Source: a virus
Taxonomy: Duplodnaviria; Heunggongvirae; Uroviricota; Caudoviricetes
Length of the DNA: 53,807 bases
Direction: 5' to 3' (one strand)
Virus record (IMG/VR): IMGVR_UViG_2718217709_000003
The number at the start of each line of letters is the position of its first letter. Positions within the stretch are counted from its first letter, which is position 1. This document shows, piece after piece, positions 17,615 through 21,763 of this stretch. The position numbers were made by a program, and so were the translations under genes. The notes beneath the pieces were generated by a model. That model ran no database searches and was not told where the DNA came from. It was given only the letters and a program-made list of their open reading frames with translations.

Positions 17615-18186
17615 TTACATTTCAGGTTGCGTTATGACAGTCCCAACAGGGTGGTAGCGGTAGATCGTTGACAGTCCAATATCATAGATAATTGCCAGCC
17701 GCTTTCTGTCATACCCTTTCTGGAGCAATCTTGCGATCTGCTCATGCTGCTCCTTCGTCAGTTTCGGGCGACGTCCTCCAACTCTCCCTTGTGCTCGCGC
17801 AGCAGCCAGTCCTGCCAGCGTGCGCTCAACTATCAGTTCACGCTCCATTTCTGCCAGTGCACCCATCATATGAAAAAAGAACCTTCCCATCGGAGTGCTG
17901 GTATCGATTGAATCCGTCAGACTGCGAAAATTGACACCTTTTGCGCGTAGCTCTTCTGTGAGAGCAATGAGGTGTTTCATTCTTCTACCCAACCGATCCA
18001 GCTTCCAGACCACCAATGTATCCCCTCTTTTAAGGCACTTTAAAGCGCGTTTCAGGCCTGGTCGTTCCGACTTGGTTCCGCTCATTTTGTCCTCAAAAAT
18101 CTGTTCACATCCTGCGCACATTAATGCATTGCGTTGCAAATCTGTGTTTTGGTCATTTGTTGACACACGTATGTAGCCAATCAGCA
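17615..18186 (-). CDS. Serine DNA invertase, Gin/Pin/Cin/Hin family (190 aa)
   Basis: MLIGYIRVSTNDQNTDLQRNALMCAGCEQIFEDKMSGTKSERPGLKRAL...LDRLGR... with a C-terminal HTH; start taken at the ATG at 18186, which has an upstream SD. Confidence 0.9.
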
Positions 18187-18241
18187 TTAAAAATACTCCC
18201 TTTTGAGTGGTTAAAGTACTGAGATAATGTGGGGAGGATTT

Positions 18242-18267
18242 GAGAGATAAACGTTGGTTTGGGGGAA
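18242..18267. other. Candidate invertase crossover site 1 (gix/hix-like, 26 bp)
   Basis: GAGAGATAAACG-TT-GGTTTGGGGGAA: half-sites resemble Hin-family sites; the right half-site is identical in all three sites. Confidence 0.5.
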
Positions 18268-18735
18268 GGCTCGGCGCTGCCCGTTGGTGTACCTGTTCCG
18301 TGGCCCACTGCCACACCGCCAGCAGGCTGGTTACAGTGCAACGGAGCTACGTTCACCAAAGAACAATATCCTGTTCTGGCCAGAGTCTACCCGACCCTCC
18401 GTCTTCCCGATTTGCGCGGTGAGTTTATCCGTGGATGGGATGACGGACGAAAGATTGACACCGGGCGTGCCCTGCTAAGCAGCCAGAGCGGAATGATTGA
18501 GAAACACCGTCATATTGTTGTTGCCAATGATGGTTACGACACAAAAGATGAATGGGAACTGGCTGCGATTTTCAAAAAAACATACACACAAGGACGAGGA
18601 CTTGATGCCACAAATACAGGAGGGAGTCTGACCCCATCACCAACACTTCATTCGCGAGGGAGTATCGGTAATACTGGCGGGAGGGAAACCCGTCCACGAA
18701 ATATTGCCTTTAACTACATTGTCAGGGCGGCCTAA
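18259..18735 (+). CDS. Alternative tail-fibre C-terminal cassette B (promoterless, TTG/Leu first codon; about 158 aa)
   Basis: Begins LGEGSALPVGVPVPWPTATPPAGWLQCNGATFTKEQYPVLARVYPTLRLPDLRGEFIRGWDDGR, homologous to the collar-domain segment of the fibre gene on the opposite strand; ends ...RPRNIAFNYIVRAA*. Confidence 0.6.
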   Translation: MGEGSALPVGVPVPWPTATPPAGWLQCNGATFTKEQYPVLARVYPTLRLPDLRGEFIRGWDDGRKIDTGRALLSSQSGMIEKHRHIVVANDGYDTKDEWELAAIFKKTYTQGRGLDATNTGGSLTPSPTLHSRGSIGNTGGRETRPRNIAFNYIVRAA

Positions 18736-19205: not shown

Positions 19206-19211
19206 TACCGT

Positions 19212-19826
19212 TCAACTGGCAAGTGCCAGTGGTGCTTCCGGCCAGCTGATTTCAGGTGCCGTGCTGATATCCAGTGCGTTCAGCTCGTCGATATAATCCA
19301 GCACGGCGTTCAGTTTTGCCGTTTCTTCTGGTGTCAGACTGCGACCAGCACGCAGTTTGAGGTTGATAAGATCGACGGACGCCATCGCCTGTTTCACCCG
19401 TTGCTGGCGTTGCTGTCTGGCAACCTCCAGTTCTGCGGTTCGCTGCCGTTCAGTATCGGTTACCCACGCCTCACCGTTCCAGGTATCCCATGGCGTGGCT
19501 GGCTGTTTTGTGGTGGTGTCCGCCGGGTAATCACCCGGTTGGGTAATCAGAACGGGGTTACCGTTCTCCGTGCTGTATACCGTCTCGCCGCGGTGATCAG
19601 GCACATGCTCCCACCCGTTCAGCGTGGCAGTCCGGCAAACCACGTAACCCGAAATTGCCTCCGGCGGTGCATCGGCGCACGAATGTGCCGGAGTACCCAC
19701 CCCAAGGGCGAGATACTCCACAGAGGATGAGGTGTATTCCCGGGTTTCCTCGTCATAGTGATATACAGTGATATCGCCCGCTACAGTGGCGATACCGTTT
19801 TCATCCAGAACTGCAGTGTTACTCAT
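19212..19826 (-). CDS. Tail fibre assembly protein (Tfa chaperone, 204 aa)
   Basis: Immediately downstream of, and coupled to, the fibre gene; size and position match Mu U / lambda Tfa-type chaperones. Confidence 0.7.
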   Translation of the reverse strand: MSNTAVLDENGIATVAGDITVYHYDEETREYTSSSVEYLALGVGTPAHSCADAPPEAISGYVVCRTATLNGWEHVPDHRGETVYSTENGNPVLITQPGDYPADTTTKQPATPWDTWNGEAWVTDTERQRTAELEVARQQRQQRVKQAMASVDLINLKLRAGRSLTPEETAKLNAVLDYIDELNALDISTAPEISWPEAPLALAS

Positions 19827-21763
19827 TAAACTGCCCTCACAATGTAATTAAGTGCAATGCTACGGGGTCTGACAGTGATACCCTTCGCATACCCGCTTCT
19901 GATAGAGGTCAGAATAGTAGCCTGCATACCATTGTCTGACATTGCTATGACAGGATCGCTGAATGTTGTCCCGTCCGGCATTTTAAAGCTGCCCTCACGA
20001 AGGTCTGTAATGGAATCTTCATTGTTGAATCCCATGCCGACTATCCCCGAGGTTCCCGTAGTGTCCTGGTTATAATAATCCAGCATTGCTGTTCTTAACA
20101 GCGTTGCCCCTTGTGCGGACAGCAACTTACGTCCTGTATCAACTTTGCGCCCGTCGTCCCATCCACGGATAAACTCACCGCGTAAATCGGGAAGACGGAG
20201 GGTCGGGTAGGCTCTGGCCAGAACAGGATATTGTTCTTTTGTAAAGGCGCGCCCGTCGCACTTTAACCAGCCTTCTGGCGGTGTGGCGGTGGGCCACGGA
20301 ACCGGTACACCAACAGGCAATGCAGAGCCTTCCCCCAAACCAAGGTAATTGAGGACATCTTTTATACTGCCCTTAGCGATAATAGCGCGACCAATAGCTG
20401 TAAGGGTTGCCAGCGCTGCTCGGTCTGCTCCGGTAAAATAAGGCAACCGATCTGCTGCAGTGGCAAGTCCTGCCAGAGCAGTGAGCGTGGCATCTGCCGG
20501 TTGTTTTCCGTTTGCCAGATCGTATGCAGCCTTGACCGCTTTCGGTGTGGCGGCCAGTATTTCAGACGTGCTGTTGATGGCACTGCTCAATTGTACGGTG
20601 CCTTTTGTCGTCAGCGAGGCAGCAGGCACTCCCGTTATCTGACTCCACGGGTGAGTGTGGCTGACGGGCGCCTTGCCGGCTGCAAGGTCGTATGCAGCCT
20701 TGACCGCCTTCGGCGTGGCAGCCTCAGTTTCTGATTGACTGTCCGTGGCGCTGCTCAGTTGTACGGTGCCTTTTGCCGTCAGTGAAGCCGCAGGCACTCC
20801 CGTTATCTGACTCCACGGGTGAGTGTGGCTGGCAGGCGCCTTGCCGGCTGCCAGGTCGTATGCAGCCTTGACCGCTTTTGGTGTGGCGGCCAGCGTTTCA
20901 GACGTGCTGTTGATGGCACTGCTCAGTTGTACGATCCCTTTACGGGTCGTTGTTGCATCCTGGGCTGTGTATTTTCCCCGGGCCAGATCATACGCGATTT
21001 TCACAGCCTTCGGCGTGGCAGCCTCAGTTTCTGATTGACTGTCCGTGGCGCTGCTCAGTTGTACGGTGCCTTTTGCCGTCAGTGAAGCCGCAGGCACTCC
21101 CGTTATCTGACTCCACGGGTGAGTGTGGCTGGCAGGCGCCTTGCCGGCTGCCAGGTCGTATGCAGCCTTGACCGCTTTTGGTGTGGCGGCCAGCGTTTCA
21201 GACGTGCTGTTGATGGCACTGCTCAGTTGTACGATCCCTTTACGGGTCGTTGTTGCATCCTGGGCTGTGTATTTTCCCCGGGCCAGATCATACGCGATTT
21301 TCACAGCCTTCGGCGTGGCAGCCTCAGTTTCTGATTGACTGTCCGTGGCGCTGCTCAGTTGTACGGTGCCTTTTGCCGTCAGTGAAGCCGCAGGCACTCC
21401 CGTTATCTGACTCCACGGGTGAGTGTGGCTGGCAGGCGCCTTGCCGGCTGCAAGGTCGTATGCAGCCTTGACGGCTTTTGGTGTGGCGGCCAGCGTTTCA
21501 GAGGTGCTGTTGGTGGCACTGCTCAGTTGGGTGAACCCCTTAGCTGTCAGTGTCGCGTCCGGGTGGTTACGGGAACGTACGTGTTCAGCCAGTGACTGTG
21601 CGGCTTCCTCCGTTTTTTTCTTCAGCCATTTCGTCCTGTTTGCCAGTTGCCGGGGGGCTCGATTTGATATCCCGTCTGCACCACCCAGAACCGGATCTGA
21701 TGTCTCCAGTTGATAGATATTTTCTTCCCACTTTTCTGTTTCATTCAGGTTTCCCATAATCAA
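19826..21763 (-). CDS. Tail fibre protein (645 aa) with tandem fibre repeats and a C-terminal collar-type receptor-binding domain
   Basis: Repeated ~100-aa units (TAKGTVQLSSATDSQSETEAATPKAVK...AGKAPASHTHPWSQITGVPAASL); the C-terminal segment after ...NYLGLGEGSALPVGVPVPWP is shared with cassettes B and C. Confidence 0.85.
   Translation of the reverse strand: MIMGNLNETEKWEENIYQLETSDPVLGGADGISNRAPRQLANRTKWLKKKTEEAAQSLAEHVRSRNHPDATLTAKGFTQLSSATNSTSETLAATPKAVKAAYDLAAGKAPASHTHPWSQITGVPAASLTAKGTVQLSSATDSQSETEAATPKAVKIAYDLARGKYTAQDATTTRKGIVQLSSAINSTSETLAATPKAVKAAYDLAAGKAPASHTHPWSQITGVPAASLTAKGTVQLSSATDSQSETEAATPKAVKIAYDLARGKYTAQDATTTRKGIVQLSSAINSTSETLAATPKAVKAAYDLAAGKAPASHTHPWSQITGVPAASLTAKGTVQLSSATDSQSETEAATPKAVKAAYDLAAGKAPVSHTHPWSQITGVPAASLTTKGTVQLSSAINSTSEILAATPKAVKAAYDLANGKQPADATLTALAGLATAADRLPYFTGADRAALATLTAIGRAIIAKGSIKDVLNYLGLGEGSALPVGVPVPWPTATPPEGWLKCDGRAFTKEQYPVLARAYPTLRLPDLRGEFIRGWDDGRKVDTGRKLLSAQGATLLRTAMLDYYNQDTTGTSGIVGMGFNNEDSITDLREGSFKMPDGTTFSDPVIAMSDNGMQATILTSIRSGYAKGITVRPRSIALNYIVRAV
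20322..20347. other. Candidate invertase crossover site 3, inside the fibre gene and inverted relative to sites 1 and 2
   Basis: Reverse complement reads TCCTCAATTACC-TT-GGTTTGGGGGAA; lies at the constant/variable junction (codons ...LNYLGLGEGS...). Confidence 0.5.
20400..21540. repeat. 300-bp tandem repeats within the tail-fibre gene (about 2.4 perfect copies, 20707-21420, plus diverged flanking copies)
   Basis: 20707-21006 is identical to 21007-21306, and 21307-21420 repeats again; the ORF track shows identical antisense ORFs offset by 300 bp. Confidence 0.85.

Follow-up and report, generated by a model that had tools for sequence, protein, structure and literature searches.

Inversion of tail-fibre tips by DNA invertases of the Din family is a classical theme, known from phage Mu, from P1 (Cin, C segment) and from the e14 element, and on p15B, a P1-related plasmid of E. 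coli 15T-, six crossover sites give rise to many isomers. Shufflons use a tyrosine recombinase (Rci) and 19-bp sfx sites. PMC5903667 and PMC6906374 cite Min of p15B as a multi-site switch of the Din family, and according to PMC9881135 systematic surveys have already recorded programmed inversion at tail-fibre genes and tfa neighbours. Here we analyse a tail-fibre locus in IMG/VR virus record IMGVR_UViG_2718217709_000003, a 53,807-nucleotide stretch of DNA from a virus of the Caudoviricetes that we call the window throughout. The locus is very probably a site-specific host-range switch of the Pin/Gin type in a transposable prophage related to BcepMu, and it offers three alternative fibre tips (A, B and C) but holds a single tail-fibre assembly gene, tfa.

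The locus resembles e14 in its crossover sequence (TTGGTTTGGGAGAAGG in e14, TTGGTTTGGGGGAAGG here), which in both falls on the GLGEGS motif of a collar-type tip, and in its proteins: tip A is 55% identical to StfE, the invertase 76% to PinE and Tfa 59% to TfaE, and the other two cassettes are likewise homologous to StfE. It differs in the number of its parts, e14 having two sites, two tips and two tfa genes (stfP-tfaP, tfaE-stfE) against three, three and one here. PinE and PinQ have been shown experimentally to invert the e14 repeats TTGGTTTGGGAGAAGG (PMC12529663).

With the Mu G segment, the substrate of Gin, the locus shares its gene order (baseplate, fibre, chaperone, inverted cassette or cassettes, and invertase at the phage end), 73% identity between the invertases, and 26-bp sites with a 12-2-12 layout. 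Mu, however, has two states and a separate chaperone gene for each tip (Sv-U, U'-S'v), and its core is TC rather than TT; the tips in the window are of the collar type and match Mu S in the shaft only. Three sites, three tips and one tfa do not make a two-state switch of the G type. An earlier note on this DNA, made from the letters alone, had drawn the same contrast and called the locus a multi-cassette switch. The contrast holds, but the design is not new in kind, since it is found in Min and in P1-like plasmids.

With Min the locus has in common more than two crossover sites, overlapping inversions, one constant 5' part and several 3' tips. Specifically, there are three sites, and A, B and C have each been found joined to the constant part, which is the pattern of multiple inversion seen in Min. 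It differs from Min in having three sites and four isomers, and in being carried by a transposable BcepMu-like prophage rather than a P1-like plasmid. Several cassettes competing for one constant 5' part also recall the shufflons of the R64 type, and phage tail collar domains fused to PilV in a shufflon-like locus are described in PMC9881135. A tyrosine-recombinase shufflon was rejected here because the adjacent enzyme is a serine recombinase.

Results

Organization of the locus

Three copies of the motif TTGGTTTGGGGGAA, and no more, are present in the 53.8-kb window (18254-18267 and 18739-18752 on the plus strand, 20330-20343 on the minus strand), compared with 0.02 matches expected by chance from shuffled sequence. 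Aligned over 26 bp, the three pix-like sites around it consist of 12 + 2 + 12 bp and share the central TT and the inner half GGTTTGGGGGAA, in agreement with the earlier note. That note had also placed site 3 inside the fibre gene and sites 1 and 2, as direct repeats, at the heads of cassettes B and C, and the coordinates (Table 1) bear this out; each of sites 1 and 2 is inverted relative to site 3. Read on the opposite strand, site 1 (TTCCCCCAAACC AA CGTTTATCTCTC) is closely similar to the pix site of e14 (TTCTCCCAAACC AA CGTTTATGAAAA).

Table 1. Positions of the parts of the switch in the window.
Feature	Positions	Strand	Basis
Serine DNA invertase, Pin/Gin/Min (Din) family, 190 aa	17615..18187	minus	Pfam Resolvase 8e-51, HTH_7 1e-12
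Putative recombinational enhancer, two Fis-like motifs GAGGACAAAATGAGC and GCGCTTTAAAGTGCC	18034..18094	minus	positions match gin in alignment
Site 1, invertase side, GAGAGATAAACG TT GGTTTGGGGGAA	18242..18267	plus	motif and 26-bp alignment
Silent cassette B, with collar, a variable insert and a conserved C-terminal strand	18256..18735	plus	Pfam Collar 6.6e-16
Site 2, GCGGCCTAAACG TT GGTTTGGGGGAA; outer half is the 3' end of cassette B	18727..18752	plus	
Silent tip cassette C	18741..19205	plus	Pfam Collar 6.9e-16
tfa, tail-fibre assembly gene	19212..19826	minus	Pfam Caudo_TAP (PF02413) 5.5e-28
Tip cassette A, joined to the constant part (current state)	19826..20341	minus	Phage Tail Collar domain in fibre 3' end
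Site 3, in the fibre gene at ...NYLGLGEGS..., TCCTCAATTACC TT GGTTTGGGGGAA	20330..20355	minus	
Constant N-terminal part and shaft of the tail fibre	20344..21757	minus	Phage_fiber_2 1.6e-130; PGAP coding sequence

The fibre gene annotated by the Prokaryotic Genome Annotation Pipeline (PGAP) spans 19826-21757, so that the start proposed before, at 21763, has to be moved to 21757. Downstream of it, on the plus strand, the open reading frames of B (18259-18735) and C (18744-19205) stand in tandem. A collar domain is found in both and in the last 171 residues of the fibre, and the two silent cassettes end in NYIVRAA, both as foreseen from the letters alone; the corresponding end of A is NYIVRAV. 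Both silent cassettes are uninterrupted, and their predicted fusions to the constant part are in frame. Against homologues, the ratio of non-synonymous to synonymous substitution (dN/dS) is 0.08-0.12 for B and 0.15 for the variable part of C. Compared with solved structures, the fibre matched in its collar only (short tail fibre, T4 gp37), apart from a short stretch of the Mu S shaft.

The collar segments make the locus repetitive. A 221-nt direct repeat, 97% identical between B and C, starts at the sites (18248-18468 and 18733-18953), the first 200 nt at the 5' ends of the two cassettes being identical, and inverted repeats of 218 and 229 nt, 87% complementary and also headed by the sites, pair the cassettes with the fibre gene.

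The invertase that the earlier note had recognized beside the fibre locus as a Gin/Pin type is confirmed by the domain matches in Table 1 and by its match to the Gin structures 4m6f and 3uj3 (E = 2e-93). The catalytic Ser9 is present, within IRVSTNDQ, the gene is intact and 99-100% conserved across loci, and the protein is 99% identical to the invertase of the P1-like plasmid pCUVET20-PYO4.3. By its catalytic domain, serine and C-terminal helix-turn-helix, the predicted enzyme can be counted among the Din-family serine DNA invertases.

The invertase would recombine site 3 with either of the oppositely oriented sites 1 and 2, cutting at the 2-bp TT core. Since the 5' end of every cassette bears the inner half-site, the one brought behind the constant part would in each case be translated as the receptor-binding tip of the fibre. 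By homology with the Din family, for which dependence on Fis and on negative supercoiling is characteristic, inversion would require Fis and an enhancer inside the invertase gene, and deletion between the directly repeated sites 1 and 2 would be disfavoured. Candidate Fis-like motifs lie at +94..108 and +140..154 of the invertase gene, 46 bp apart, and match the consensus weakly; the spacing of the Fis sites in the Hin enhancer is 48 bp. That these motifs are an enhancer is only suggestive.

Isomers in natural genomes and the position of exchange

With one site pointing one way and two the other way, four isomers are predicted, and all four are found in complete E. coli genomes. State 1 is that of the window and of FORC_031, with A on, tfa in sense, and C and B reversed. 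In state 2, represented by 360D-1, C is on while tfa, A and B are reversed. State 3, which needs two inversions and is represented by 2014EL-1343-2, has B on, followed by A and tfa in sense, with C reversed. In state 4 (ECAMP047) B is on and followed by C in sense, and tfa and A are reversed. Cassette B is also joined to the constant part in Ecol_448, and A is reversed and silent in strain 83972 (CP058220) as it is in 360D-1 and ECAMP047.

To count the junctions, queries made from the window sequence were searched against 5,426 complete E. coli genomes, a genome being counted if one place covers at least 80% of the query. The constant-A junction was found in 327 genomes and the constant-C junction in 202, while the constant-B junction was found in 18, 3 of which are close relatives, and the B-A adjacency in 8. 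The prediction that inversion joins the constant part to B or C is thus realized in nature. Strains labelled O25b:H4 or ST131 include both A-on and C-on genomes.

For two pairs of loci the conversion can also be made on paper without any residual difference. Inverting positions 18739-20343 of the window in silico, i.e., between sites 2 and 3, reproduces 360D-1 at 3401 of 3401 bases. The 360D-1 prophage occupies the same chromosomal site as that of the window, and over the 3001 nt compared (17500-20500) the window is matched without difference by strain 254D-1, whose number is of the same form as that of 360D-1. For strain ABU 83972, two independent assemblies (NC_017631 and CP058220) hold a two-cassette version of the locus in opposite orientations, and flipping the first in silico gives the second at 5000 of 5000 bases.

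The joints locate the exchange. In all isomers examined the outer half-sites remain with the flanks, that of site 1 beside the invertase gene in every isomer, and the inner halves travel with the cassettes. Since A and C differ at many positions of the repeat, the crossover that produced 360D-1 must fall within a 19-nt identical run that holds the TT core; three identical stretches of greater length (26-28 nt) are present further into the repeat. This fits a site-specific exchange rather than general recombination. At the level of assembled sequence we regard both the four isomers and the position of exchange as demonstrated.

Several side observations concern the sites and their repeats. Cassette B lies between the 221-bp direct repeats, and two-cassette loci without B exist, of the kind seen in ABU 83972; they look like products of deletion, either between these repeats or between sites 1 and 2, but may also go back to homologous recombination or to an ancestral state. 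In EC958 (L002, ST131) the inner half-site on the constant side is a variant, GGTTTAGGAGAA, while the cassettes retain GGTTTGGGGGAA, and the cassette next to the invertase differs from B.

A single predicted chaperone gene

The start of tfa overlaps the stop codon of tip A, and its own stop lies 6 nt from that of C. By its domain and its place directly downstream of a tip, tfa fits the assembly proteins of the Caudo_TAP family (lambda Tfa, Mu U, P2 G); no sequence match was found between Tfa and solved structures. A second tfa was not found in window positions 10000-30000.

Since tfa and C converge, every C-on state leaves tfa antisense to the fibre operon, whereas the two B-on states differ, tfa reading in sense in state 3 but antisense in the other. 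The earlier note had held that only the current tip has a tfa downstream and that tfa turns antisense once the segment is inverted. There is indeed one tfa only, and it is antisense in the single-step products 360D-1 and ECAMP047; a fourth isomer, which the note does not include and which is seen in 2014EL-1343-2, has tfa in sense downstream of B. As for separate expression, a scan of 17400-20500 predicted no sigma-70-like promoter for tfa, either from the invertase side or inside cassette A. The TTGACA at 18161-18166 (+) was considered as a promoter and rejected: it is complementary to the codons of the invertase's conserved VST, and an acceptable -10 element is lacking. An antisense open reading frame opposite tfa was likewise rejected as a hidden gene, its translation being of low complexity.

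What a single Tfa could serve was approached by a survey of 79 related loci across Enterobacterales, in which 56 collar tips have a tfa of roughly 200 aa within a few bases downstream. Among these pairs the variable regions of the tips have a mean identity of 18%, and the Tfa proteins of about 45%. Identity between Tfa proteins shows no relation to that between variable regions (rho 0.00 for the N half and 0.09 for the C half, 56 pairs) but some relation to collar identity (rho 0.33 and 0.21 respectively, 56 pairs), these correlations being descriptive only. Because Tfa follows the collar and not the variable tip, it probably acts as a general chaperone on the conserved scaffold of the collar, so that one tfa could serve three tips.

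Related loci suggest, by analogy, that the tips may differ in their need for it. In several P2-like clusters the sheath gene comes directly after a fibre gene with a collar tip. In one of them, from Rahnella laticis, the fibre tip is 76% identical to C, variable part included, and the sheath gene follows 164 nt after the fibre gene with no tfa between; Pfam matches confirm the order V-W-J-I-H-sheath-tube. A C-like tip without tfa suggests that C may be independent of Tfa. In L083, another Escherichia locus, a B-like tip (79% identical) has a tfa of its own behind it.

Taken together with the gene order, this suggests a working model in which Tfa would be translationally coupled to A and co-transcribed with the fibre in states 1 and 3; A would use Tfa, C would need none, and B would receive it in state 3 only. 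A further proposal is that the single tfa is itself part of the switch, the invertible unit carrying A, C and tfa, which would give four phenotypes: A with Tfa, C without, B with and B without. We put this forward as tentative, and consider it rather unlikely. According to PMC9881135, which cites North et al. 2019, Tfa of Mu stays on the fibre tip and contributes to receptor binding. If binding of this kind held here, the B tip in states 3 and 4 would differ in receptor specificity or in efficiency of assembly, and if tfa is part of the switch, one inversion system would control both the tip and an accessory adhesin.

In the invertible layout that is usual across Enterobacterales, a tip-tfa pair faces a tfa-tip pair (L052, L085, L074 and L037, against L016, L028, L031 and L043). 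Loci with fewer tfa genes than cassettes come mainly from Escherichia, together with one Dryocola contig that has two convergent cassettes and no tfa.

The prophage and its relatives

The DNA around the locus is that of E. coli, FORC_031 being 100% identical over the 3001 nt compared (17500-20500). The switch is the final module of a prophage with Mu-like genes (Mor, GemA/gp16, a DUF935 portal and a Mu F-like head protein); its genes for tail and head are complete, and the baseplate run has the order D-V-W-J-I-fibre. Specifically, the prophage ends with TG at 17537 and CA at 50403, as read by eye in 17531-17543 and 50397-50409, and has GAAATG on both flanks, resembling the target-site duplication that a transposable BcepMu-like phage leaves. 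It is inserted between yoeF and yeeW, in the CP4-44 remnant, and related copies lie at unrelated chromosomal sites, beside rstB, aroA and clbH. A close relative is classified under Bcepmuvirus. The early region at about 46400-50100 (29800-33500 in L007) contains repressor/Ner-like genes, DUF3102, GemA and Mor. Neither transposase A nor B was found among the annotated genes of the window prophage, and this copy may be defective.

Three phage records were set aside. The PhiKM record is partial and breaks within the fibre gene, and phage 503046, which is unannotated, is A-on, with B and C not detected. The record named after P88 is a stretch of chromosome with wrongly set bounds, and P88 is itself P2-like.

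The same module is found outside transposable prophages. About 20 P1-like plasmids, hits H148-H162 among them, of about 90-97 kb, carry it at 96-100% nucleotide identity; in pCUVET20-PYO4.3 (L009, 6000-9200) A is 100%, tfa 96% and C 100% identical, in a locus of four cassettes and one tfa. Such near-identity means, on the sequence comparison, that the module has moved between two unrelated phage types, the transposable prophages and the phage-plasmids. Together with the 99% identical invertase, it also suggests that the system in the window is probably the Min lineage in a different phage type.

Some variation was noticed in the rest of the fibre gene and in how such loci are recorded. The shaft (20514-21581) is built of 300-nt tandem repeats in four copies, 77-100% identical, that encode the Phage_fiber_2 repeats. 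The length of the fibre gene differs between strains, from 1332 to 1932 nt, so the number of shaft repeats seems to vary among them. In the PGAP annotation the silent cassettes figure, depending on the isomer, either as genes of their own whose TTG start falls within the crossover site or as pseudogenes 'missing N-terminus'. Public assemblies also contain many contigs of 1-2 kb that carry these cassettes and nothing else, presumably the result of assembly breaks at the repeats.

Discussion

Several points weigh against reading the locus as an active host-range switch that works with a single tfa. Isomers in other assemblies are evidence of past inversion, not of its rate. Without an annotated transposase the window copy may not make virions, and the switch may be idle here. 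The Fis-like motifs deviate from the Fis consensus by 2 and 3 mismatches, at 46-bp spacing. No independent promoter is predicted that could supply Tfa in states 2 and 4. The Rahnella cluster could have a chaperone elsewhere or be a tailocin, and because the B-type tip in L083 has its own tfa, B may need Tfa, so that state 4 may yield poor fibres. Finally, the 56 tip-tfa pairs of the survey are phylogenetically dependent.

On a rival reading B, and perhaps C, are non-functional remnants, of a duplication for example; the locus would then have one or two working states, and particles with B or C on would be defective for want of a chaperone. The identical 5' ends of B and C, and the 221-bp direct repeats flanking B, are what a duplication or insertion would leave behind; two-cassette loci lack B altogether, the constant-B junction is rare, and tfa is antisense in states 2 and 4 with no separate promoter predicted. 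However, neither cassette is interrupted, both continue the frame of the constant part, and their dN/dS of 0.08-0.15 is measured against homologues that are expressed as fibre ends. In Rahnella, also, a C-type tip ends the fibre with no tfa beside it, in state 3 B is followed by tfa in sense, and layouts of three or four cassettes are kept in P1-like plasmids. We therefore consider this explanation unlikely.

Slightly less likely still is that the switch serves the host, the fibre-tip proteins of the lysogen masking receptors and so blocking superinfecting phages, as with the P segment of e14. There, the segment inverted by Pin yields a chimeric StfE2 that blocks adsorption of T2 (PMC12529663), and StfE is homologous to A, B and C and has nearly the same core; the window prophage, moreover, has no annotated transposase. 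In contrast, the late operon that holds the fibre gene deep within it has its full set of tail and head genes, the module is also present in P1-like phage-plasmids that appear complete, and a host-range role is established for Mu, P1 and p15B.

That RecA-dependent homologous recombination between the inverted collar repeats of about 220 bp made the rearrangements, the invertase being irrelevant or dead, is very improbable: the repeats (218-229 nt, 87% complementary) are long enough, and mosaic collars such as that of the ABU 83972 C cassette, with its A-type 5' collar sequence, suggest some gene conversion, but in all isomers examined the outer half-sites stay fixed and the whole cassette moves from the first informative base, the 360D-1 crossover avoids the three longer identical runs, the invertase keeps its serine and its conservation, and homologous e14 sites are inverted by Pin enzymes experimentally (PMC12529663).

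We therefore favour a site-specific, invertase-driven switch of fibre tips. It is essentially familiar in kind and its novelty is modest, the variant being that a single tip travels with the chaperone gene; as far as our literature search reached, this unequal chaperone arrangement, with its implications, is the one feature without prior description. If collar tips of the C type fold without Tfa, they would offer simpler parts for retargeting fibres or tailocins. The switch also accounts for the assembly breaks and the inconsistent annotation at such loci. The module is common, almost unchanged, to transposable prophages and P1-like phage-plasmids, and for a widespread family of E. coli prophages, including the copies in ST131 and ABU 83972, it would mean that the host-range module is a working switch of three tips and four states.

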